From an uncultured Methanosarcinales archaeon (GTDB taxonomy: Archaea > Nanobdellota > Nanobdellia > Woesearchaeales > DATDXC01): a stretch of 64,000 nucleotides of DNA. Positions 50,951 to 59,738 of the stretch are shown one piece after another; the stretch's first letter is position 1, and the number at the start of each line of letters is the position of its first letter. Made by a program: the position numbers and the translations under genes. A model generated the notes under the pieces. It was given only the letters and a program-made list of their open reading frames with translations, did no database searches and had not been told where the DNA came from. Location: the NCBI GenBank assembly GCA_964510025.1, contig CAZDZV010000006.1, forward strand, positions 11,143-75,142, given 5' to 3'.

Positions 50951-51271
50951 ATGTTTTGTCCAAAATGCGGTTCAATATTGGTGCCAAAAAAAGAAGGTAA
51001 AAAGACAGTAGTTAAGTGCTCCTGCGGCTATAAGGCAAAAAACCAGGAATCTACCATAATCCGTGAGGAGGTGGTGGATAATACTAAAGAAGTAGAGCTT
51101 ATTGATGATGATAAAAGCCTTGAGACCCTGCCTAAGATGAAGGCAGAATGCCCAAAATGCCAGAACAATGAGGCTTATTTCTGGGAAGTGCAGACCAGAG
51201 CTTCAGATGAGCCCGCAACCAAATTTCTTAAGTGCACGAAATGCAAGCATGTGTGGCGGGACTATAATTAA
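50951..51271 (+). CDS. tfs: Transcription factor S (TFS / RpoM-like)
   Basis: N-terminal CPKCG...CSCG Zn ribbon; C-terminal CPKCQNNEAYFWEVQTRASDEPATKFLKCTKCKHVWRD (TFIIS-type ribbon with the acidic tip). Start at MFCPKCG. Confidence 0.85.
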   Translation: MFCPKCGSILVPKKEGKKTVVKCSCGYKAKNQESTIIREEVVDNTKEVELIDDDKSLETLPKMKAECPKCQNNEAYFWEVQTRASDEPATKFLKCTKCKHVWRDYN

Positions 51272-51813
51272 AGTATATAAGGGTTATTTCTAGCTTGCTC
51301 GAGAACACCTACTAGCTGCACCAGGCCCTCAGCTCCTGGAAACCCATTGCCTATATAGCCTCTTGCTCTAAGAATATCGCATGCGTCCCTGAATTCGTCC
51401 CCGCCGCCTGTCACCATCACAACAGCAATACGTTGGGTAGCAGCATCTCTCCCAAGCAAAGCCAGGGTTTCAATGCCTGATTCATCATGAGAATAAGACA
51501 GGGTGTTTCCTGTTCTTGGATGTACAATCTGGATTCTCCTGCTATCAACAGGCTCTCCTTGAACTAATCTTTTTGTGCTATAATTTACAGCTAAGAAAAC
51601 CATCAGTGGATCTAGTTCCCTTACCCTATCAGCTACAGACTCAGGGGTTGTTTCGGCTGAAACAGCTTCTGCAACAGCATCATAACCAGCATCCTTCAGC
51701 GTACTTATGTAAAGATCCGCTAACTCAGTTCTAGGATGAAACACTGCAATCTTATTTGGCATACAGGATATGTATAAAGCTTTACTATATAAATGTTTGT
51801 ATTTAGTTATCAC
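51268..51813 (-). CDS. Hypothetical alpha/beta protein (NYN/LabA-like?); GC-rich relative to its neighbours
   Basis: IAVVMVTGGGDEFRDACDILRARGY resembles the NYN C-terminal block. Probable start at MPNKIAVF. Confidence 0.35.
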   Translation of the reverse strand: MITKYKHLYSKALYISCMPNKIAVFHPRTELADLYISTLKDAGYDAVAEAVSAETTPESVADRVRELDPLMVFLAVNYSTKRLVQGEPVDSRRIQIVHPRTGNTLSYSHDESGIETLALLGRDAATQRIAVVMVTGGGDEFRDACDILRARGYIGNGFPGAEGLVQLVGVLEQARNNPYIL

Positions 51814-52036
51814 TTTTAAGTGATGACTGCCCTACAAACCTAGAATTCTGCAATTTTAGGCTTTAATGCGTCTTTCATGCAAGACATGAATAACGACTCT
51901 GTGCTTCTCTTTGATCGGCCCACATCGGCTTTCTATTTTCATTGAGCCCATTTTATTTATATATAGGCAAGATAATGCTTTGATAATATATAAAAGCTGT
52001 GTTTATTTTGGGGAATTTGTGAGTCGACAAATCCCT

Positions 52037-52966
52037 CTAAATTATGATGTCTTTTAGGATTCCTTGTTTTACTAATTCGATATTTATCAAGTAATCATTA
52101 TGCAGAAAAGTTTCAAATAATGATTTCTTTGTTGTTTTCCATCCAAGACCATCGGTAATCCAAATTAAGTCGATTCCTTGTTTTCTTAAGAAGTCTGATA
52201 AGTACTGATATTCACCAGCTGTTGACTTTAATTTTGACCCACCGCCACTATAATAATTGGTTTCAATTACAAAAATCTTATTTTTTGATTTCTCAAATAC
52301 TGCAAAATCAAATATTCGATTGGTTTTATCAAGTTCAATATCAAAATTCCATTTCTCCTTGATCTTTTTTTGTGTTGCTTGCGGAATGTAGTCCAAGTTA
52401 TTTTTCTCTGAGAATTTCAGTATTATCTTCTCAACAATGCTCTCCATTGATTGACCTGTACGGTTTTTTCTTGCATTTGTATCCATTCCTACTTCGACAC
52501 CAAAGCAATAGTCAACAATATTCTTAACATTTTTATCTTTGAATATACTTTTTAATCCCGATTCCTTAAAGAAAATTAGTATGTCTTCTCTTATATCTGA
52601 AGTAAGCTCAACATCAGGATTAAATAATTCCAGTTTACTACCAGACTTTAGCTCTTCAAAATCATCAATGATGTTTACTGCCTTTAATTTGCTTTTTCTG
52701 ATAGCAATGAGAATTGGAAGAACCTTTCTTACATTTGGATATTCAGTAATAAGTTCAATGAATTCTTTTTCTATATCGCTTTTTCCAATTAACACATTAA
52801 GAAGATTTAGCTCTTTTTCAATTAAGTGAGTGTTATTCTTAACTTTCTCAAAATCAACAAAATAATCCCATGTAAATATGGAATCTGTCAAAGTTTGTAC
52901 AAGATAGTCAAATATCCCTTTCTCATCTTTTAGGTTTAATTTTTCATATGTTTGTAAGTATTTCAT
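52037..52966 (-). CDS. Type II restriction endonuclease, R.DpnII (DpnB)-like; GATC specificity inferred
   Basis: YCFGVEVGMDTNARKNRTGQSME and FDFAVFEKSKNKIFVIETNYYSGGGSKLKSTA closely resemble my recollection of R.DpnII blocks. Confidence 0.7.
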   Translation of the reverse strand: MKYLQTYEKLNLKDEKGIFDYLVQTLTDSIFTWDYFVDFEKVKNNTHLIEKELNLLNVLIGKSDIEKEFIELITEYPNVRKVLPILIAIRKSKLKAVNIIDDFEELKSGSKLELFNPDVELTSDIREDILIFFKESGLKSIFKDKNVKNIVDYCFGVEVGMDTNARKNRTGQSMESIVEKIILKFSEKNNLDYIPQATQKKIKEKWNFDIELDKTNRIFDFAVFEKSKNKIFVIETNYYSGGGSKLKSTAGEYQYLSDFLRKQGIDLIWITDGLGWKTTKKSLFETFLHNDYLINIELVKQGILKDIII

Positions 52967-52975
52967 TTCTTCACC

Positions 52976-53809
52976 TTAATAGTTTGTAACGACAACTTCA
53001 TTTATCTTTCCCCTTTTGTCCCCATTACAATTGATCATTCTTGTTGCCTGAACAAAATGGATTTCATAATTAGGATATAATTCTTTAATAAATTTTGTAT
53101 CGCTATTGCTTAACATCACAAGGCAACCATTATCATCCAGTTTTTTGAATACTTCAGCAAGCTGTTTCTGCTCTTCTTCTAAAAATGTGTCTTTTGTGTA
53201 GGTTGTAAAACTCTTTCCTTTTTTAAGTGGATAATAAGGAGGATCAAAATAAATAAAGTCTCCTTTATTTGCTAGATTAACAACCTTTTCGAAAGACATT
53301 ACTTTAATCGTAACATTTTTCAATAATTCTGAAACTAGTCTTAATCTATCTTCTTGGACAATATCTGGATTTTTGTAGGAACCCATCGGAACGTTGAATT
53401 TTCCCTTTGAGTTTACTCTATATAGTCCATTGAAGCAAGTCTTATTTAAATAAATGAATCGTGCTGCTCTTTCAAGAGAAGGTAATTCTTTTGGATTTGT
53501 TGCACGAATTGTTAAATAATATTTTTTGCCTTCAACCATATGATATTCCTTATGCTGTTTTAATTCAATTATTAATCTCTCTACATCACCCCTTATGGTT
53601 TCGTAAGCATTGATTAATTCTTCATTTATGTCTGAAATAATAATTTCAGAAGGATTAAACTTTTGAATTATATAGAAGAAAACTGCTCCGCTACCAACAA
53701 AAGGCTCTAAATAGCGATTAAACTTCTTTGGAAATAATGGCTCAAACTGTTCTAAAAGTTGACCTTTACCGCCTGCCCATTTAACAAATTTGGGGATTTG
53801 GATATTCAT
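52976..53809 (-). CDS. Dam-family N6-adenine DNA methyltransferase (alpha class, DpnM-like)
   Basis: KWAGGKGQLL, EPFVGSGAVFF (motif I), FIYFDPPY (motif IV). Confidence 0.85.
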   Translation of the reverse strand: MNIQIPKFVKWAGGKGQLLEQFEPLFPKKFNRYLEPFVGSGAVFFYIIQKFNPSEIIISDINEELINAYETIRGDVERLIIELKQHKEYHMVEGKKYYLTIRATNPKELPSLERAARFIYLNKTCFNGLYRVNSKGKFNVPMGSYKNPDIVQEDRLRLVSELLKNVTIKVMSFEKVVNLANKGDFIYFDPPYYPLKKGKSFTTYTKDTFLEEEQKQLAEVFKKLDDNGCLVMLSNSDTKFIKELYPNYEIHFVQATRMINCNGDKRGKINEVVVTNY

Positions 53810-55563
53810 TTTTTATTCTCCACCAATTCAGAAACAAATACTTTTAAATTGTCTGTTACCAAATAACTTTTTTCTAATAATTTTTCACATATCATCTTAC
53901 AAATATACTTTTTCAACCCTTCATCACAGAAATTAATCACTTCTTTATCTGAATTTTTACTTTTTATCTTTTCAGTTGCAAAATTCAAAATTTCACTATT
54001 ATTATATGCCTGATTTGTTCTTTCCTTAAATTCATCATAAGCCATAATAGTATAGTGGTTTCTTTTATCTTTTAAAAATTCATTAATTGTTTCTAAAATT
54101 AATTTTGGTTCAAAAATATCTTCAATCTCAAAATTAGCTACATTATTTTCATAATTATCAAAACGCTTAACATATTTACATTCTACACTAAAACAGTTAT
54201 ATGTTTTTGACTTTATTTGTTGAAATATACTTTTTCCAGCTGTATCAAAATCAAAAAGTGCGATAATTTTTGGCTTAAAAGATAGATTATTGCAAAACAA
54301 TTCTAGAAATTGTAGGTAACCTTTATATTTATCAACCCCTCCTGCAACAAGAATATTAGGTTTGATAATTTTTAGTTGTTCAAATAATGCAAATAAATAA
54401 TCTTTATCTTCCTGTCCTTCCACCAATAGATTGAAAGGCAAGATCTCCCAAGAATCATTCTTAGAAATTCCTAGGTGCTCTTTGACCATGTACACTTTTT
54501 CAATACCTGCAGCATTATTTATTCTTGTATTTACTTCATAGAATTTCTCGTCTTTTTTCCTGATGTATTCTTTTAATTGTATATCTGCTTCTAGCAAAAC
54601 TACTTCTTCCACTTTCTCAAGCCGTATAAAATTTGGAGAATGTGTATTAATAATGGTTTGATATTTTTTTGAAAGTTGAAACAAGATATCACTTACCCTT
54701 TTCTGAAGTGATGGTTGAAGAAATGCTTCTGGCTCGTCAAACCCCCAGATAATCTCTTTTCCAGTTTTATCAGATATATATTCGATTAAAGAGTATAAAA
54801 CAATTCTCTGAATTCCGCTCCCTTTTGTTTCAATTTTGTTTGAATTGCTATCAATCAGAGTAAAATCAATTAAATCAGATAAAACTTCTCGTAAGTTAAT
54901 GTATTTTGGGAATAGAATTTCTGCCCTCCATAATGAATTATCTATCCCATTAATTCCATTTGTATATTTTTTGATATTTTCAGTAAGTTCTTTTTTTATT
55001 TCTACTAATGCCTTTTCAGATTCTTCAATAAAAGTATTCAAATGTTCCATTGGTTTTGTTTTTCTTTTTCTCAGATTATCCAGGGGAGTTAATAATTCAT
55101 TACTAACAAACCTTGCAATCTCTTTAGAAGTGTCAATATTACTAGCTTCGACCATAATAAATTGATATTTATTTAGAACATTTTTACAATCTTTATCGCT
55201 CATTAGGGTTTCTTGTTTACCTTTTACTTTTATTTTGCCCTCTATCGTTAATGATTTGATTCCCTTTTTCTGCTCTTTATATGTTGTAGAAATAGTAATT
55301 CTATCTTGATTTTTATTAACAAATTCAGCTGTGATTTTTGTTCTGAATCCTGCTCCTCTTTTTCCATAGTAGATATGATGAGGAATATCCTCGTTAGCAT
55401 TAAATTTATTTTCGTCTAACGAGAAGAACAAATTTATAGCTCGTAATACATTTGTTTTACCAACATTATTTGAACCACAAATGATTTTATAGTTATCATT
55501 AGAGAAATCAATCTTTAACTTACTTATTGATCTGTAATTACTTATACTTATTTTCTTTAACAT
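53806..55563 (-). CDS. OLD-family nuclease (class 1): N-terminal AAA_15/ABC-type ATPase plus C-terminal Toprim
   Basis: Walker A GSNNVGKTN; Q-loop/signature region; Walker B IIWGFDEPEAFL; H-loop INTHSP; Toprim LLVEGQED and FDFDTAG. ATGA overlap with the Dam gene. Confidence 0.75.
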   Translation of the reverse strand: MLKKISISNYRSISKLKIDFSNDNYKIICGSNNVGKTNVLRAINLFFSLDENKFNANEDIPHHIYYGKRGAGFRTKITAEFVNKNQDRITISTTYKEQKKGIKSLTIEGKIKVKGKQETLMSDKDCKNVLNKYQFIMVEASNIDTSKEIARFVSNELLTPLDNLRKRKTKPMEHLNTFIEESEKALVEIKKELTENIKKYTNGINGIDNSLWRAEILFPKYINLREVLSDLIDFTLIDSNSNKIETKGSGIQRIVLYSLIEYISDKTGKEIIWGFDEPEAFLQPSLQKRVSDILFQLSKKYQTIINTHSPNFIRLEKVEEVVLLEADIQLKEYIRKKDEKFYEVNTRINNAAGIEKVYMVKEHLGISKNDSWEILPFNLLVEGQEDKDYLFALFEQLKIIKPNILVAGGVDKYKGYLQFLELFCNNLSFKPKIIALFDFDTAGKSIFQQIKSKTYNCFSVECKYVKRFDNYENNVANFEIEDIFEPKLILETINEFLKDKRNHYTIMAYDEFKERTNQAYNNSEILNFATEKIKSKNSDKEVINFCDEGLKKYICKMICEKLLEKSYLVTDNLKVFVSELVENKK

Positions 55564-55579
55564 TATTTCCCCAGTATAG

Positions 55580-56365
55580 TCAAATAAGCTTATTCTTTAT
55601 AGAGTTTATCCTTTTTATTGTGGTTTTTAAAAAATTCTCCTCTTTATCAATACCTATAAATTGTCGATTAAGCATACTTGATACAACCCCTGTAGTACCA
55701 GATCCATTAAATGGATCTAGTACAACGGCATTTTCTTTTGTTGAAGATGCGATAATTCTTCTCAATAATTCTATTGGCTTTTGAGTGGGATGCTTTCCAT
55801 GAGTCTTTTCGCTCATTGGAGTTAACGGAATATGCCAAATGCTCCTCATTTGTTTACCTTTTGGAGCAATATTATCATCCCATTCCCTCATTAAATCATA
55901 ATTAAAAACATGAGGAATCTTCCCATCTTTTCTTGCCCATAAAACAGTTTCATGTGCATGAGCAAAATACCTGCAGCTTAAATTTGGTGGTGCATTAGGT
56001 TTAAACCATGCAATTTCATTTAATAATTTGAAATTGAGCTTTTGTAACGCATATCCTACTTGGTATATATTATGCATTGTCCCAGAAATCCAAATAGTAC
56101 CATTATCTTTTAATACCTTACGACATGCATTTATCCATTCATAAGTGAATTTGAAATCTTTGTCTATTCCATTAGATTTATCCCAGTCTGCTTTATTAAC
56201 TGAGACCATTTTACCAGCCCTGCAAGAGATCCCTCCGTTAGATAGGAAATAAGGTGGATCTGCAAAAACCATATCAACAGATTTTTCAGGTAATGTGTTT
56301 AGAATACTAATACAATCATTATGGAAAAGTTGCACAGTTTCAGACTTGTAATAGGGTTTAATCAT
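55580..56365 (-). CDS. N6-adenine DNA methyltransferase, beta class (DpnA / M2.DpnII-like)
   Basis: MVFADPPYFLSNGGIS (motif IV first), NGTIWISG, NLSCRYF, GKHPTQKP, VLDPFNGSGTTGV (motif I last). Confidence 0.8.
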   Translation of the reverse strand: MIKPYYKSETVQLFHNDCISILNTLPEKSVDMVFADPPYFLSNGGISCRAGKMVSVNKADWDKSNGIDKDFKFTYEWINACRKVLKDNGTIWISGTMHNIYQVGYALQKLNFKLLNEIAWFKPNAPPNLSCRYFAHAHETVLWARKDGKIPHVFNYDLMREWDDNIAPKGKQMRSIWHIPLTPMSEKTHGKHPTQKPIELLRRIIASSTKENAVVLDPFNGSGTTGVVSSMLNRQFIGIDKEENFLKTTIKRINSIKNKLI

Positions 56366-56495
56366 TTATAAATCTAATAAAGTCCTTTATTATAAACTTT
56401 GTTATTAAACTTTCGAAATATTACTATTTTCTTTGCAATGAGCCGTCTCATCGCCCCCTCTCTTCGCAGATCCTTCTATATACAATGCAAGCCTT

Positions 56496-57113
56496 ATGTA
56501 TTACATACTCCGAACGTTGCTTATAAACGATGGGAGCCTTAAATTAGGTGGTGATAAAATGACCTTGGAATATAAGCGTGAACCTCTAGAAGAGGATGAA
56601 GTGTTGGCTTTAAGGAGAGCATCTACTTTCTTTGAAGAAGAATTAGTTATAAACTGTCTGTTAGATACTGGCATGAGAGTATCAGAGCTTGCCAACCTAA
56701 GAGAAGAAAATATCTCCTGGCAAAGAAACTGTATCAGCTTGATAGGAAAAGGTAATAAGCGTAGGGTGATCCCAATGAGTAAAAGAGTAAGGCTACTCCT
56801 ATTAGACTGTTTTTCTCACAATAATACCAAATTTCCATTAGCCATGCGAACAATCCAAAAATATGTTAAAATCGTGGCAGACAAGGCAAGGATAAGAAAA
56901 ACTGTAAGCCCTCACGTGCTAAGACACACATTTGCAGTAACCTATCTTCACAGAGGAGGCAATTTAAGGGCATTACAGGCTATTCTAGGGCATAGTTCCA
57001 TAACAACTACTGATATTTACCTCAACTACTCAGGGAAGCGAGTTATTGATGATTTTCAAAGAATATGGAATGAGCCAGATACAAATAACAAGTTATTGAC
57101 GGGGTATTTTTAA
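56496..57113 (+). CDS. Tyrosine recombinase/integrase (short XerC/D-like)
   Basis: R..(box I) ...HVLRHTFAV...LGHSSITTTDIYL (R-H-R-Y catalytic set). Confidence 0.75.
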   Translation: MYYILRTLLINDGSLKLGGDKMTLEYKREPLEEDEVLALRRASTFFEEELVINCLLDTGMRVSELANLREENISWQRNCISLIGKGNKRRVIPMSKRVRLLLLDCFSHNNTKFPLAMRTIQKYVKIVADKARIRKTVSPHVLRHTFAVTYLHRGGNLRALQAILGHSSITTTDIYLNYSGKRVIDDFQRIWNEPDTNNKLLTGYF

Positions 57114-57115
57114 AA

Positions 57116-58162
57116 ATGGCAAAAAACATCTTCTTTTTTATTATTAAGCATGGAGCTTTGCTTGGCATAGCATTTCCATTTATATTATCCATAAAAATAA
57201 GCACATCTCCTTTTGGTTTGGTACATTTAGTGTTAACCCTAATTATTTTGGAATACTATGCTTATTCCATACACCAGTTTTTATTTGATTTTCAGGATAA
57301 AAGAAGAAAGTTAAGAATAAAAAAATTTGAAGAGTCTAAACTGATTGATAAATTCCTAAATGCTAAATTAGATTACTCTAAATCTTCAGAACTATTAGAG
57401 TTAATTTCTATTATAAAGAATACAGAATTCTTGCCAAAATTAAAAGAAATGTATAATCAGAAAATCGAAGAAAAAATGATTTATGCTGAAAGACTACTTG
57501 AGAAATTACAGCACCAAGAAGAAATACAAGAACTTGAGCTGAAGAAAAGTCAACTTAATAACAACATTCAATATCTAATAAAGCAAGAAAAGGAGATGAC
57601 TCAAACAGAAGAAGAAAGGAAGGAAGATCTAAAGGGGGAGATGAATCTTGAAGAAAATAAGGTGTTTGAAGAGTCAGATCTTACTGATGAAAAAGCAAAT
57701 TTTCTTCTGGAAGAAGGATACGAACAAACCAATCAATATTCAATTATGGAAGAAGGAAATATCTCGGTTTATATCAAACCCGTACTTAATCATTCAAAAT
57801 CACATATGTTTTTGGTTTACGAATTAAAGCAGATTTTGGAACATTGGTATGAAGCTGAAAACATAGAAGAGCATCTAACAAAGGATGCAGACCTTACTTT
57901 CAAGTATAACAAGAAAATCTACGCTCTGGAAGTTGAGACAGGAACATTGCTGAAAAAGAAAGACCAAGCTAGAGATAAAGTAGAATATCTAAATAGGAAA
58001 TATCAAAACAGATGGATGTTCATAGTAACAAATAGAAACCAAGTGGCTAAATACAAGAAATTAGGAATAGTCAGTGAGAGAAAGCAGGTGACAAAAAATC
58101 TTGATAAGATGCTAAAACTCCGCACCCCCCTAGATCGGGTGTCTGAGGAATTTCCCGACTAA
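57116..58162 (+). CDS. Membrane-anchored coiled-coil protein with a C-terminal putative nuclease-like domain; hypothetical
   Basis: Two N-terminal TM helices; long E/K-rich coiled coil; C-terminal HMFLVYELK...KDADLTF...YALEVETG... Confidence 0.45.
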   Translation: MAKNIFFFIIKHGALLGIAFPFILSIKISTSPFGLVHLVLTLIILEYYAYSIHQFLFDFQDKRRKLRIKKFEESKLIDKFLNAKLDYSKSSELLELISIIKNTEFLPKLKEMYNQKIEEKMIYAERLLEKLQHQEEIQELELKKSQLNNNIQYLIKQEKEMTQTEEERKEDLKGEMNLEENKVFEESDLTDEKANFLLEEGYEQTNQYSIMEEGNISVYIKPVLNHSKSHMFLVYELKQILEHWYEAENIEEHLTKDADLTFKYNKKIYALEVETGTLLKKKDQARDKVEYLNRKYQNRWMFIVTNRNQVAKYKKLGIVSERKQVTKNLDKMLKLRTPLDRVSEEFPD

Positions 58163-58215
58163 AAAATCACTAAAATAGTCACTTATTCAATCTCCGTATA
58201 ATATCACTTCTTATA

Positions 58216-58977
58216 TTACATAAGGCTATTTTCCAGCTTCTCAATTTTTACAAGCATCTCGTACTTCTCTTTGAATTCTTCCATACTTAACTCTCCCTCC
58301 ACATACTTCATCTTGAGTGCTTCCAATGGTTCAATTGTAGATTCTTTTGTGGATTGCTTCGGCTCTCTCTTCGTACCAAAAGCCATGTTTATCTTGTTTT
58401 GTAAGTCTTTATTTGTAATGTAAGCATAGATTTGGGTAGTATGGATATCAACATGCCCAAGAGATCTCTGAACATAGTAGAGGTCGACTCCTTTTTCTAG
58501 TAGATAGGTTGCATAGGTATGTCTCAATGTATGAAAACTGTAAGCATACCTTTGCTGTCCAAGTTGTGTTTTGAAAGTCTCGATACTAAGCTTAGCTTTC
58601 AGAAGATATTTTCTAAAATGCTTGCTTAAAATGTTGTTAGCAAATGGTCTTCCAGAATAGTTTGAAATAAAATACTCTGATTCATCTGAAAGCCTGAACC
58701 ATTTCTCAATCAATGGTTTGACTTTTTCAGGTAGCATCACTACTCTGTCTTTGCTACCTTTTCCCTGTCTTACAATTACCCTTTCAGCTTCAAGATCAAC
58801 ATCTTGTTTTTTCAGATTGCAGACTTCACTTATACGCAGACCACAAAACAAGGCAATAATACAGCCCATAAATATATTTGCATCATCAATCTGCTCAAAA
58901 AGTGCCATTAATTGCTTTTTATTGAAAACATTAGGTAGTTTTCTTTTTGTATTTGGTCTCCCGAATCTCATCTTCAC
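58216..58977 (-). CDS. Tyrosine recombinase/integrase
   Basis: HTLRHTYATYLL...LGHVDIHTTQIYAYI; box I LRISE. Confidence 0.8.
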   Translation of the reverse strand: MKMRFGRPNTKRKLPNVFNKKQLMALFEQIDDANIFMGCIIALFCGLRISEVCNLKKQDVDLEAERVIVRQGKGSKDRVVMLPEKVKPLIEKWFRLSDESEYFISNYSGRPFANNILSKHFRKYLLKAKLSIETFKTQLGQQRYAYSFHTLRHTYATYLLEKGVDLYYVQRSLGHVDIHTTQIYAYITNKDLQNKINMAFGTKREPKQSTKESTIEPLEALKMKYVEGELSMEEFKEKYEMLVKIEKLENSLM

Positions 58978-59381
58978 ATCCTCGCAATAAGGTTTAATCC
59001 ATGATCCCTGATCACTTGGGTTACATCTTCAAACCTTTCCTGTCTTCGCTTTAAAGCCTCAGAAACCGCTTTTTTCTGCGATATAGTCCTCTGCTTGATC
59101 TGGAACTTGATGTCAATCGGAATCTTTTCTAAAAGCAACCATCTGTAAACCGTAAAGGGGTTATAGCTACTTTTGATAAGAAAATCATACAACTCCTTCT
59201 CTAGCCCAAGAACTAGAAACTTCTTCCTATTATAATGAAAATGAGCTAATTTACCCATAATCTGCAAGAAATCACGACTCTCTAGCTGAGGAAGACGACT
59301 ATATACCAATTTCCTCAAGCATTCTAGCTTCTGGACAAAATTTTTCTGCATATCTGCTTGTTTCACGACCGACACCCCCAT
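58974..59381 (-). CDS. Hypothetical protein co-transcribed with the integrase (4-nt overlap)
   Basis: ORF only; basic; no recognised motif. Confidence 0.35.
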   Translation of the reverse strand: MGVSVVKQADMQKNFVQKLECLRKLVYSRLPQLESRDFLQIMGKLAHFHYNRKKFLVLGLEKELYDFLIKSSYNPFTVYRWLLLEKIPIDIKFQIKQRTISQKKAVSEALKRRQERFEDVTQVIRDHGLNLIARM

Positions 59382-59507
59382 GTCAGCTCAATAAGAAAGA
59401 AAAGACCGACGTGAACTCACAAGATGCAGAATCTATAAATCTTTCTATTATTTACTATTAATTAGTAATAACATATCCTTAAAAATATTGGATTATCTAT
59501 ACAATAT

Positions 59508-59738
59508 ATGGATATCGAAGGGCCTGTATTCAGGATTATCGTAAAGCCGAGCAGTCCAAATAATAAGGTGCTTGGCTATGATAAGGCTAAAAAAGCATAT
59601 AAGGTACAGATAAAAGCAAAACCAGAAAAAGATAAGGCTAACATTGAAACAGTAAAATTTTTGTCCAGATTGCTTAAGAGAAAGGTAAAGATAATAAAAG
59701 GCTTCAGGAGTAAGCAGAAGATACTATCTTTTGAATAA
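59508..59738 (+). CDS. DUF167 (YggU-like) small protein
   Basis: VFRIIVKPSSPNNKVLGYD...YKVQIKAKPEKDKANIETVKFLSRLLKRKVKIIKGFRSKQKIL matches the DUF167 consensus. Confidence 0.65.
   Translation: MDIEGPVFRIIVKPSSPNNKVLGYDKAKKAYKVQIKAKPEKDKANIETVKFLSRLLKRKVKIIKGFRSKQKILSFE

Follow-up and report, generated by a model that had tools for sequence, protein, structure and literature searches.

The DNA analysed here, called the window throughout, is a 64,000-nt stretch of contig CAZDZV010000006.1 from an uncultured archaeon. Positions 51807-59471 of the window carry two tyrosine recombinase genes, a gene for a 348-aa protein (X348), a small gene (orf135) and a block of restriction-modification genes, and this region is probably an integrated mobile island of ~7.65 kb. 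All eight open reading frames (ORFs) placed here by an earlier reading of the sequence alone (the original prediction) were recovered in an ORF check. That reading had described an AT-rich, foreign-looking island with defence genes and recombinases, and the base composition agrees: the GC fraction is 0.318 between positions 51827 and 59451, as against 0.401 in the left flank and 0.419 in the right flank. The drop in GC is positioned at a palindromic sequence, pal-L, at the left edge. The flanks hold archaeal housekeeping genes, i.e., those for TFS, a CTP-dependent riboflavin kinase, a DUF167 protein, an Mre11-like protein and HerA. No tRNA gene was detected across the 64-kb window, which agrees with the original prediction. 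The island would consist of three parts: a conserved recombination module of 3 kb on the right (56498-59471), formed by two convergent operons, one with orf135 followed by Int2 and the other with Int1 followed by X348; a 4.3-kb cargo of DpnII-type restriction-modification genes, with two methyltransferases and an OLD-family ATPase inside; and a short conserved left end (51827-51871).

The two recombinases, Int1 (56559..57113, + strand, 184 aa) and Int2 (58216..58977, - strand, 253 aa), display a catalytic domain only, with a C-terminal tail in Int2, as seen in Pfam, NCBIfam and PDB structure alignments. Both match Pfam PF00589 (Phage_integrase), Int1 with an E value of 6.9e-28 (98 bits) and Int2 with 1.5e-32 (113 bits), where the cut-off is 27. 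Alignment to the XerA structures 5hxy and 4a8e shows the full R..K..HxxR..H..Y set in both and confirms that these are two opposite-strand tyrosine recombinases with complete catalytic residues, as had been claimed. The motifs are GMRVSE, GKGNKRR, HVLRH, LGH and TDIY in Int1, and GLRISE, GKGSKDR, HTLRH, LGH and TQIY in Int2. An hhalign comparison of the two proteins gives a probability of 98%. The mechanical ORF of Int1, adopted in the original gene model, begins at 56496; relatives are 168-198 aa long, and by comparison with them the start is probably at 56559.

The XerA profile, of 263 positions, is covered in its C-terminal half only, at 94-258 by Int1 and at 85-261 by Int2. Thus both proteins lack a core-binding domain, and neither has a Pfam match to Phage_int_SAM. 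The class of simple Xer-like recombinases, with core-binding and catalytic domains in one chain (PMC8138268), does not accommodate them. Scores of 137.5 and 136.3 bits for Int1 and Int2 stay below the 220-bit cut-off of the XerA equivalog NF040815, and scores of 80 and 114 bits stay below the 265-bit cut-off of the integron integrase TIGR02249. General repeat scans, which did not include a dedicated attC search, turned up no attC-like array. An SSV-type "suicidal" integrase was also rejected, as both int genes are intact and the repeated sites are intergenic.

The X348 gene (57116..58162, + strand) starts 2 nt past the Int1 stop codon. Hydropathy shows two hydrophobic segments, at residues ~5-25 and 33-55, and the basic stretch that follows the second suggests that the rest of the chain is cytoplasmic. 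The AlphaFold model, from a 10-sequence alignment, has a pLDDT of 84.8 and displays a helical hairpin (2-27 and 32-82), a helix of 56 residues (107-162), a small beta-alpha-beta-beta unit and, at 228-336, an alpha/beta core. The two transmembrane (TM) helices and the coiled coil of the original prediction are thus found again, as the two hydrophobic segments and the long helices of the model. In a Foldseek search with the C-terminal domain (~226-336), the top PDB and BFVD matches are mainly PD-(D/E)xK-type nucleases with probabilities of 0.9-1.0; YaeQ, VC1899, FokI, Cdn1, Bax1, EndoMS, Hjc and phage "restriction endonucleases" are among them. The fold proposed earlier for this domain, PD-(D/E)xK-like, is supported by these matches. 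Residues H230, D259, F262, E272, E274 and K288 are invariant in an alignment of 108 diverse family members, and this pattern fits an active site of the D...ExE...K(helix) type.

X348 belongs to a large family. An exhaustive profile search gave at least 575 clusters at 50% identity with E<=1e-3, 161 of them with E<=1e-30, and nearly all are full length. A second word-indexed protein search, with an alignment, added only two sequences, P0009 and P0010. Neither X348 nor orf135 has a match in Pfam, NCBIfam, PHROGs or PADLOC (E<=0.01 for PADLOC), and X348 was found in none of 2.9 million viral contigs of IMG/VR. Coiled-coil and membrane noise was all that a profile search against PDB sequences gave, and RmuC (PF02646) is not among the families most matched by the 108 members in Pfam at E<=1.

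The remaining gene of the module, orf135 (58974..59381, - strand), codes for a small protein, predicted to be all-helical, with a segment, YNPFTVYRWLLLEKIP, that resembles a helix-turn-helix (HTH), as judged from a family alignment. The true start is probably the GTG at 59366 and not 59381 as in the original gene model. A metagenome scan confirmed 92 relatives, with 80 loci kept, so that the family size of at least 92 loci is a lower bound. The stop codon of orf135 overlaps the Int2 start within the sequence GTGA, and Int2 lies directly downstream wherever the contig reaches; this supports the coupling of the 135-aa ORF to the second integrase noted in the original prediction. The possibility that orf135 is a detached core-binding domain was rejected: hhalign against the N-termini of neighbouring full-length integrases gives 1%, and there is no Pfam match.

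Judged from gene order, Int1 > X348 > < Int2 < orf135 is one conserved 3-kb cassette. A genome scan with exact-protein look-ups found it in 8 loci, 7 of them complete (among these L003, L005, L006, L022, L028 and L032; L024 is cut by a contig end), and both recombinases are convergent in ~30 metagenome loci. The same gene order is found in L003 (sample SRR22388036) with 72% nucleotide identity over window positions 56499-59460; this locus also has the closest X348 relative, at 64% identity, and differs in its left neighbour, an acetyltransferase gene. The scan, with one genome per species, gave 32 loci. All of these come from archaea, namely Methanosarcinales, Woese-, Nano- and Pacearchaeota.

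Of 36 genome loci, 23 have X348 or a divergent relative right behind the gene for a tyrosine recombinase, and the stop codon of the first gene often overlaps the start codon of the second. Likewise, nearly all metagenome cassettes have, just past Int1, either X348 or a diverged relative of it with N-terminal TM segments (330-520 aa, profile E values of 1e-6 to 1e-107). In DPANN genomes X348 follows a ~400-aa integrase of an unrelated family, which gives no hit with the Int1-profile hidden Markov model and 39% with hhalign. Four DPANN bins each carry two or three integrase-X348 pairs on separate contigs (L016/L018, L019/L026, L023/L031/L036 and L027/L034), which is consistent with multicopy mobile elements. 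Because the position behind recombinase genes is nearly constant, and extends to the unrelated DPANN integrase, X348 is read here as a recombinase partner and not as variable cargo; on the evidence of gene order it is a core partner of the recombinase in the conserved four-gene cassette.

The original prediction named X348 a cargo gene and a candidate abortive-infection or membrane-associated effector. In that explanation X348 is an abortive-infection or membrane effector carried between two independent integrases, and the region is a patchwork defence island. The island is rich in defence genes (DpnII restriction-modification, OLD-family ATPase), a TM anchor joined to a nuclease fold as in X348 is seen in some defence effectors, and HEPN/MNT, AbiE and reverse transcriptase genes occur near related loci. 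However the linkage of X348 or its relatives to a tyrosine recombinase, in 23 of the 36 genome loci and in most cassettes, does not suit an interchangeable effector, and the variable genes sit outside the recombinase-X348 pair. The absence of X348 from the IMG/VR contigs and of any PADLOC or PHROG match also argues against it, and we regard the effector explanation as unlikely. As a recombinase partner, X348 is most likely an active DNA nuclease that a dimeric helical stalk tethers to the inner membrane face. Candidate roles are maintenance of the element, exclusion of incoming DNA, or aid to recombination or transfer.

Upstream of orf135 in every cassette is an imperfect palindrome, with the consensus TTAYCACT-N4-AGTGRTAA, followed after 8-10 nt by a B recognition element and TATA box (BRE/TATA) with the consensus cGAAACATTTATAG and by a short motif. 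In the window, the palindrome is pal-R, TTACTATTAATTAGTAATAA (59452..59471), a right-edge core-type site recognized from the cassette-wide consensus and a pattern scan. The orf135-Int2 promoter, GAAAGATTTATAG and then the TTCTGCAT motif (59424..59445, - strand), is conserved in all cassette loci. A second core-type palindrome, pal-L, TTATCACTTTTAAGTGATGA (51807..51826), was found by pattern match at the left edge, and is followed, in the same orientation as in the pal-R unit, by the same BRE/TATA box. This second copy, AAACATTTATATAG (51785..51798, - strand), aligns with the promoter consensus and faces an orphan gene at 51268-51813; the similarity ends thereafter. The island is thus bracketed by direct copies of a ~42-bp unit that comprises the 20-bp palindrome, 8-9 nt and the BRE/TATA box (51785-51826 and 59433-59471), with the left copy reading into the orphan gene (164 or 181 aa). 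The pattern TTAYYACT-N4-AGTRRTAA, at <=1 mismatch, occurs in the 64 kb only at 51807-51826 and 59452-59471, where 0 are expected (100 shuffles); the right-hand palindrome helped to define the pattern, and the left-hand match is independent. The original prediction had reported no att repeats. The palindrome and BRE/TATA units, in the same orientation at both edges, change that picture and are the direct repeats by which a site-specific integrative element is recognized.

Next to pal-L, on the inner side, is the conserved element-end sequence ACGCATTAAAGCCTAAAATTGCAGAATTCTAGGTTTGTAGGGCAG (51827..51871, - strand), which contains TGCAGAA. The same ~45 nt are found before the distal palindrome in L043, L066 and L097, with different cargo. 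Distal palindromes in other loci are followed by cgaaacatttata in direct orientation, with a TATA box. Second palindromes are concentrated in the Int1-side flank, with 11 matches in 103 kb vs 1.85 expected (10 of 31 loci); the other flank has 3 in 199 kb vs 2.3 expected, and the interior of the cassette 2 in 136 kb vs 2.5 expected. Upstream of Int1 is a separate conserved motif, GTATTACATnnTCCGAC, found ~50-65 nt before Int1 in most cassette loci and ahead of the TATA box. In the window this "left motif" reads GTATTACATACTCCGA (56498..56513, + strand) and lies ~8 nt upstream of the Int1 TATA box.

The short motif after the orf135 TATA box is TTCTGCAT in the clade of the window and CTGCGAATTC in another. 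It pairs with an inverted copy, ATGCAGAA, inside orf135 (59344-59351), and the two members of the pair shift together by clade, i.e., TTCTGCAT/ATGCAGAA vs CTGCGAATTC/GAATTCGCA. An exact inverted match of >=8 nt is present in 18 of 54 loci, compared with 8.0 in permuted pairs. Occurrences in the window are at 59344-59351, 59424-59432 and 51843-51852, and the same positions are occupied in L037-L116. The short motifs are probably protein-binding sites, of arm type or operators. A leader RNA hairpin formed by TTCTGCAT and ATGCAGAA was rejected, as the pairing sequences fall in part into the interval that separates the TATA box from the expected transcription start, and Rfam gives no match. A 16-nt inverted repeat with 15 of 16 positions matching, TCTGGACAAAATTTTT / AAAATTTTTGTCCAGA, is found at 59330-59345 and 59654-59669. 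One arm lies in the first orf135 codons next to ATGCAGAA, and the other inside the DUF167 gene ~190 nt outside pal-R; the repeat may be due to chance or be a relic of an element end.

Other candidate sites were not retained. A 14-nt repeat at 51901 and 58261 has one copy within Int2 and was taken as chance. A nested insertion of Int1-X348 flanked by CTCCG was dismissed, as 3-5 nt only are common across loci. Targeting of tRNA genes is not a general rule: the window has no tRNA gene, and adjacency is seen only in L040, L104 and, after Int2, in L073.

Comparison of loci suggests that the module is mobile. Cassettes 75-99% identical lie in unrelated flanks. In >100 locus pairs, including pairs with 96-99% identity, homology ends 470-512 nt upstream of the orf135 stop, a 40-nt zone that corresponds to the palindrome/TATA unit. 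On the Int1 side homology ends at the left motif where cargo differs. A site polymorphism is seen between two samples (JGI, Ga0075122 and Ga0208904), where L042 and L043 represent the same 6.78-kb element at the same site with 99.97% identity. The only difference is a 28-nt segment at one junction, which runs from the centre of the palindrome as far as the TATA box, and the L043 segment equals the copy at the other junction, giving a 28-nt perfect repeat. The half-site pattern in L042 and in the window matches a central crossover, and the reconstructed attP, T(C/A)ATCACT-N4-AGTAA, is the same in both.

These boundaries also bear on whether the palindrome and TATA box could be ordinary operator-promoters of orf135, with the cassette a resident regulatory or DNA-inversion system that has no recombination-site bounds. 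The palindrome is at a typical operator position upstream of BRE/TATA, both copies in the window precede same-strand genes, orf135 has the HTH-like segment, and no long exact direct repeats were found. However cassettes that are 96-99% identical have different palindromes and unrelated DNA beyond (L054/L055, L049/L050 and L045/L078). An operator would be conserved along with its regulator. Also contrary to the operator explanation, second sites are found on the Int1 side only, beyond the cargo and after the conserved element-end sequence, and the L042/L043 difference is limited to the segment from half-site to TATA. No conserved inverted repeats bracket a promoter segment, and an invertible segment was rejected on that ground. 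We consider a resident operator system very unlikely.

From the sites and their boundaries we infer an integrative element whose recombinases would exchange strands within the palindrome/TATA unit, most likely at the palindrome centre, so that the island integrates and excises. The excised circle would carry a composite attP with the palindrome flanked by inverted TGCAGAA/TTCTGCA motifs: once circularised, the TGCAGAA in 51827-51871 would mirror the TTCTGCA by the orf135 promoter across the palindrome. These two motifs are candidate binding sites for orf135, which may substitute in trans for a DNA-binding domain. Once the island is integrated, the outer copy of the promoter would read into the adjacent chromosomal gene. 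The predicted circle junction is …TCTTTCTATTATTTACTAT-[4-5 nt]-AGTGATGACTGCCCTACAAACCTAGAATTCTGCA…, or, given on the + strand of the window, …AATCTATAAATCTTTCTATTATTTACTAT[4-5 nt]AGTGATGACTGCCCTACAAACCTAGAATTCTGCA…. The predicted empty site is …GTATTTAGTTATCACT-[4-5 nt]-TAGTAATAACATATCCTT…, also given as …TGTTTGTATTTAGTTATCACT[4-5 nt]TAGTAATAACATATCCTTAAAAAT….

A more elaborate version of the integrative element is conceivable, as a recombination machine in split parts. Here orf135 would give specificity in trans via TTCTGCA, X348 would be an obligatory partner, the left motif would serve for cargo capture, and the element would move between phyla. This version is speculative, and we think it doubtful as a whole. 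If it holds, X348 might cut the second strand or the junction, or couple excision to the membrane and to cell-to-cell transfer, and the occurrence in Methanosarcinales and DPANN archaea would reflect movement of the element between phyla.

A number of observations weigh against the integrative element as proposed and against the roles given to its proteins. With regard to the sites, the crossover point is not fixed, and the places where homology ends range from the outer palindrome edge to the TATA box. The end units of the window share the pattern, with short exact identity only, and do not amount to a direct repeat that is long and perfect; pal-L might simply serve the orphan gene as operator and promoter. 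In searches for direct repeats, none of >=9 nt was seen on either side of the 3-kb cassette or of the recombinase-X348 pair. The source genome is a singleton and the left neighbour (181 aa) an orphan gene; in the empty-site comparison the flanking proteins had no relatives at >=90% identity. The GC fraction differs within the island, 0.295 in the restriction-modification part and 0.346 in the cassette, so that secondary joining is possible. With regard to the proteins, the best Foldseek E values for X348 are weak (4e-4 in BFVD, 2.8e-3 in PDB), its model was built on 10 sequences only, and in place of the "ExK" it has ExE, the lysine being at a non-canonical position on the following helix. Three cassettes (L047, L054 and L112) are without X348. 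The single-sequence AlphaFold model of orf135 has a pLDDT of 45 and is unusable.

The cargo at 52037-56365 (- strand) is an operon of DpnII-type restriction-modification genes, among which a gene of the OLD family is embedded. It consists of a DpnII-family restriction endonuclease (52037..52966, - strand; Pfam PF04556, E 3.5e-90, 302 bits, profile positions 2-277 of 278), a Dam/D12-class N6-adenine methyltransferase (52976..53809, - strand; PF02086, E 7.4e-68, 229 bits; TIGR00571 at 307 bits vs a cut-off of 115), the OLD-family ABC-type ATPase of 585 aa (53806..55563, - strand) and an N6_N4 methyltransferase that is DpnA/CcrM-like (55580..56365, - strand; PF01555, E 9.1e-61, 206 bits). The endonuclease and the two classes of methyltransferase, each near full profile length, thus form a DpnII-type set in one operon, and family membership points to GATC specificity. 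The ATPase is OLD/AriA-like, with PADLOC matches to Old (E 4.5e-29, residues 2-446) and AriA (E 3e-27) and a Pfam match to AAA_15 (E 1.4e-24). Its C-terminus is a probable Toprim domain; the DUF3226 match there is weak (E 3.7e-5, 24 bits, under the cut-off of 27).

Homologous methyltransferases are found next to the same type of cassette in L052 (9927-14217), where they are by eye ~65-75% identical to the Dam-like and N6_N4 enzymes of the window. In L052 OLD is replaced by two genes, a DUF262-like one of 570 aa and one of 208 aa, and the block runs in the opposite direction to that of the window. The comparison suggests module shuffling within the cargo.

The restriction-modification/OLD block (52.0-56.4 kb) could also be an insertion independent of the 3-kb cassette (56.5-59.5 kb), which would then be a mobile unit of its own. 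Two acquisitions would account for the GC fractions of 0.295 and 0.346. The cassette has many different neighbours, its homology ends at the left motif by Int1, and the gap from Int1 to the next palindrome is merely 230-350 nt in L108, L087 and L097. However the element-end sequence and the second palindrome/TATA unit (51807-51871) lie beyond the restriction-modification block as seen from Int1, and the L052 methyltransferases adjoin the same cassette. Two separate acquisitions are therefore a possibility to which we give a rather low weight. If cargo swaps at the left motif, this explanation partly overlaps and is partly compatible with a single integrative island, which remains the preferred one.

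Cargo between Int1 and the distal unit varies among loci. It is restriction-modification in the window and in L052, L054 and L056, a reverse transcriptase in L043, L102 and L032, and an ABC transporter in L116. The convergent X348/Int2 junction carries an AT-rich "mid" site, TCTCCGTATAATATCAC (58191..58207), with a conserved (C)TCYGTATA.. motif that is palindromic in several loci. Beside the mid site, pairs of genes resembling toxin-antitoxin systems (HEPN/MNT-like, AbiE-like) are inserted at this junction in L006, L056, L059, L074 and L082. The HEPN/MNT insert of L006 (11079-12387) can be compared with the uninterrupted junctions of L005 (4440-4473) and L024 (478-700). The junction looks like a second cargo slot.

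Reverse transcriptase genes adjoin the recombinase-X348 pair in 18 of 36 genome loci (among them L004, L008, L011, L012, L017-L020, L022, L026, L028-L032, L034 and L035; for example L020:2548-3732) and are cassette cargo at L043:11793-13188 and L102:9333-11036. They match Pfam RVT_1 and are 350-600 aa long, some with a C-terminal HTH_40; otherwise only a helix-turn-helix is seen, in one. Beside these genes is a recurring set of a MoxR-like AAA_5 ATPase (400-490 aa), a ~590-aa protein and several 260-300-aa paralogues (L008:10728-16056, L017:12718-18541, L018, L022:2399-6410, L030 and L035). The set has no match in Pfam or PADLOC besides the AAA-type Pfam matches of the ATPase.

Two other regions of the window are of note. 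The GC-rich ORF at 51268-51813 (- strand; 181 aa, annotated as 164 aa) sits right behind the left palindrome/TATA copy, and a search of 5.8 billion proteins gave no homologue. A real orphan gene, additional cargo and a non-gene are all conceivable here. At ~17000-46200 (+ strand), ~30 successive ORFs with a GC fraction of 0.34-0.39, below that of neighbouring DNA, code among others for a DUF4330 protein and a sugar transferase. They probably form a cluster of surface-glycan genes, which may have been acquired horizontally as well.

Several known systems resemble parts of the island. FimB/FimE-type invertases are ~200 aa long and without an N-terminal domain, like Int1 and Int2. However the NCBIfam matches of Int1 and Int2 to them are weak (29-35 bits vs a cut-off of 221), and the promoter-bracketing inverted repeats of an invertible segment are absent. 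Bacterial RmuC combines a membrane anchor at the N-terminus and a long helix with a restriction-endonuclease-like domain at the C-terminus, and in this resembles X348, whose core fold superposes on Hjc, YaeQ, FokI and EndoMS. X348 differs from RmuC and Hjc in its D..ExE..K(helix) pattern, where these have D..ExK, and in being tied to recombinase genes. The best sequence matches of Int1 and Int2 are XerA, XerC and XerD, and IMEX and pdif modules are bounded by Xer-type sites. The likeness to Xer is limited by the scores (136-138 bits vs the XerA cut-off of 220), by the missing core-binding domain and by the fact that here the element carries the recombinases. The site proposed here is, like dif, an imperfect inverted repeat with a short spacer (dif architecture from PMC2958812), but its arms are ~8-13 bp with a 4-5 bp centre and not 11-6-11.

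The nearest analogues are the bacterial GInts, followed by the SEs (PMC10214605). GInt islands (ginABCD; Bardaji et al. 2017, PMC5385486) reportedly have three putative integrases in one operon with a small helix protein, and are reported absent from archaea. The likeness is in the tripartite layout, where one end has a multi-gene recombination operon with several tyrosine recombinases and a small protein of helix type, the cargo is variable and the opposite end is short and AT-rich, and in site-specific integration with imperfect flanking direct repeats. Sequence variants reported for the GInt attachment site parallel the L042/L043 difference. The cassette of the window differs in having two convergent operons, two recombinases with a catalytic domain only and an extra membrane-tethered protein of nuclease fold, and it is likened to GInts by layout and not by sequence. 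The SEs are reportedly restricted to Gammaproteobacteria and differ in gene order and in their accessory proteins; their abstract mentions no membrane nuclease.

Within archaea, the SNJ2-type tyrosine integrase is co-transcribed with the small proteins Orf2 and Orf3, which are reported to be needed for integration (PMC5861418). It thus offers a likeness as an archaeal integrase with small accessory proteins. SNJ2 is a viral, haloarchaeal system with a single integrase and a tRNA target with a 14-bp core, whereas the window has no tRNA gene and only 3 related loci adjoin one. No report of such a cassette turned up in the literature searched, including a review of archaeal tyrosine recombinases (PMC8371274, by term search) and the classification of PMC8138268. 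The four-gene module is not described in the libraries and papers searched.

The strict linkage of X348 and orf135 to recombinases makes the function of both experimentally approachable, and genetic tools exist for Methanosarcina (shuttle-vector paper PMC9569500). Two unannotated protein families are exposed, X348 and orf135. For annotation, the window shows that a short "integrase fragment" in an archaeal genome may represent a unit that is complete and functional. Islands with multiple tyrosine recombinases (GInts, SEs and RIT elements) are known only from bacteria, and the window would provide a delimited archaeal counterpart with a defined attachment site, an element that appears to carry defence cargo, restriction included, in both Methanosarcinales and DPANN archaea.

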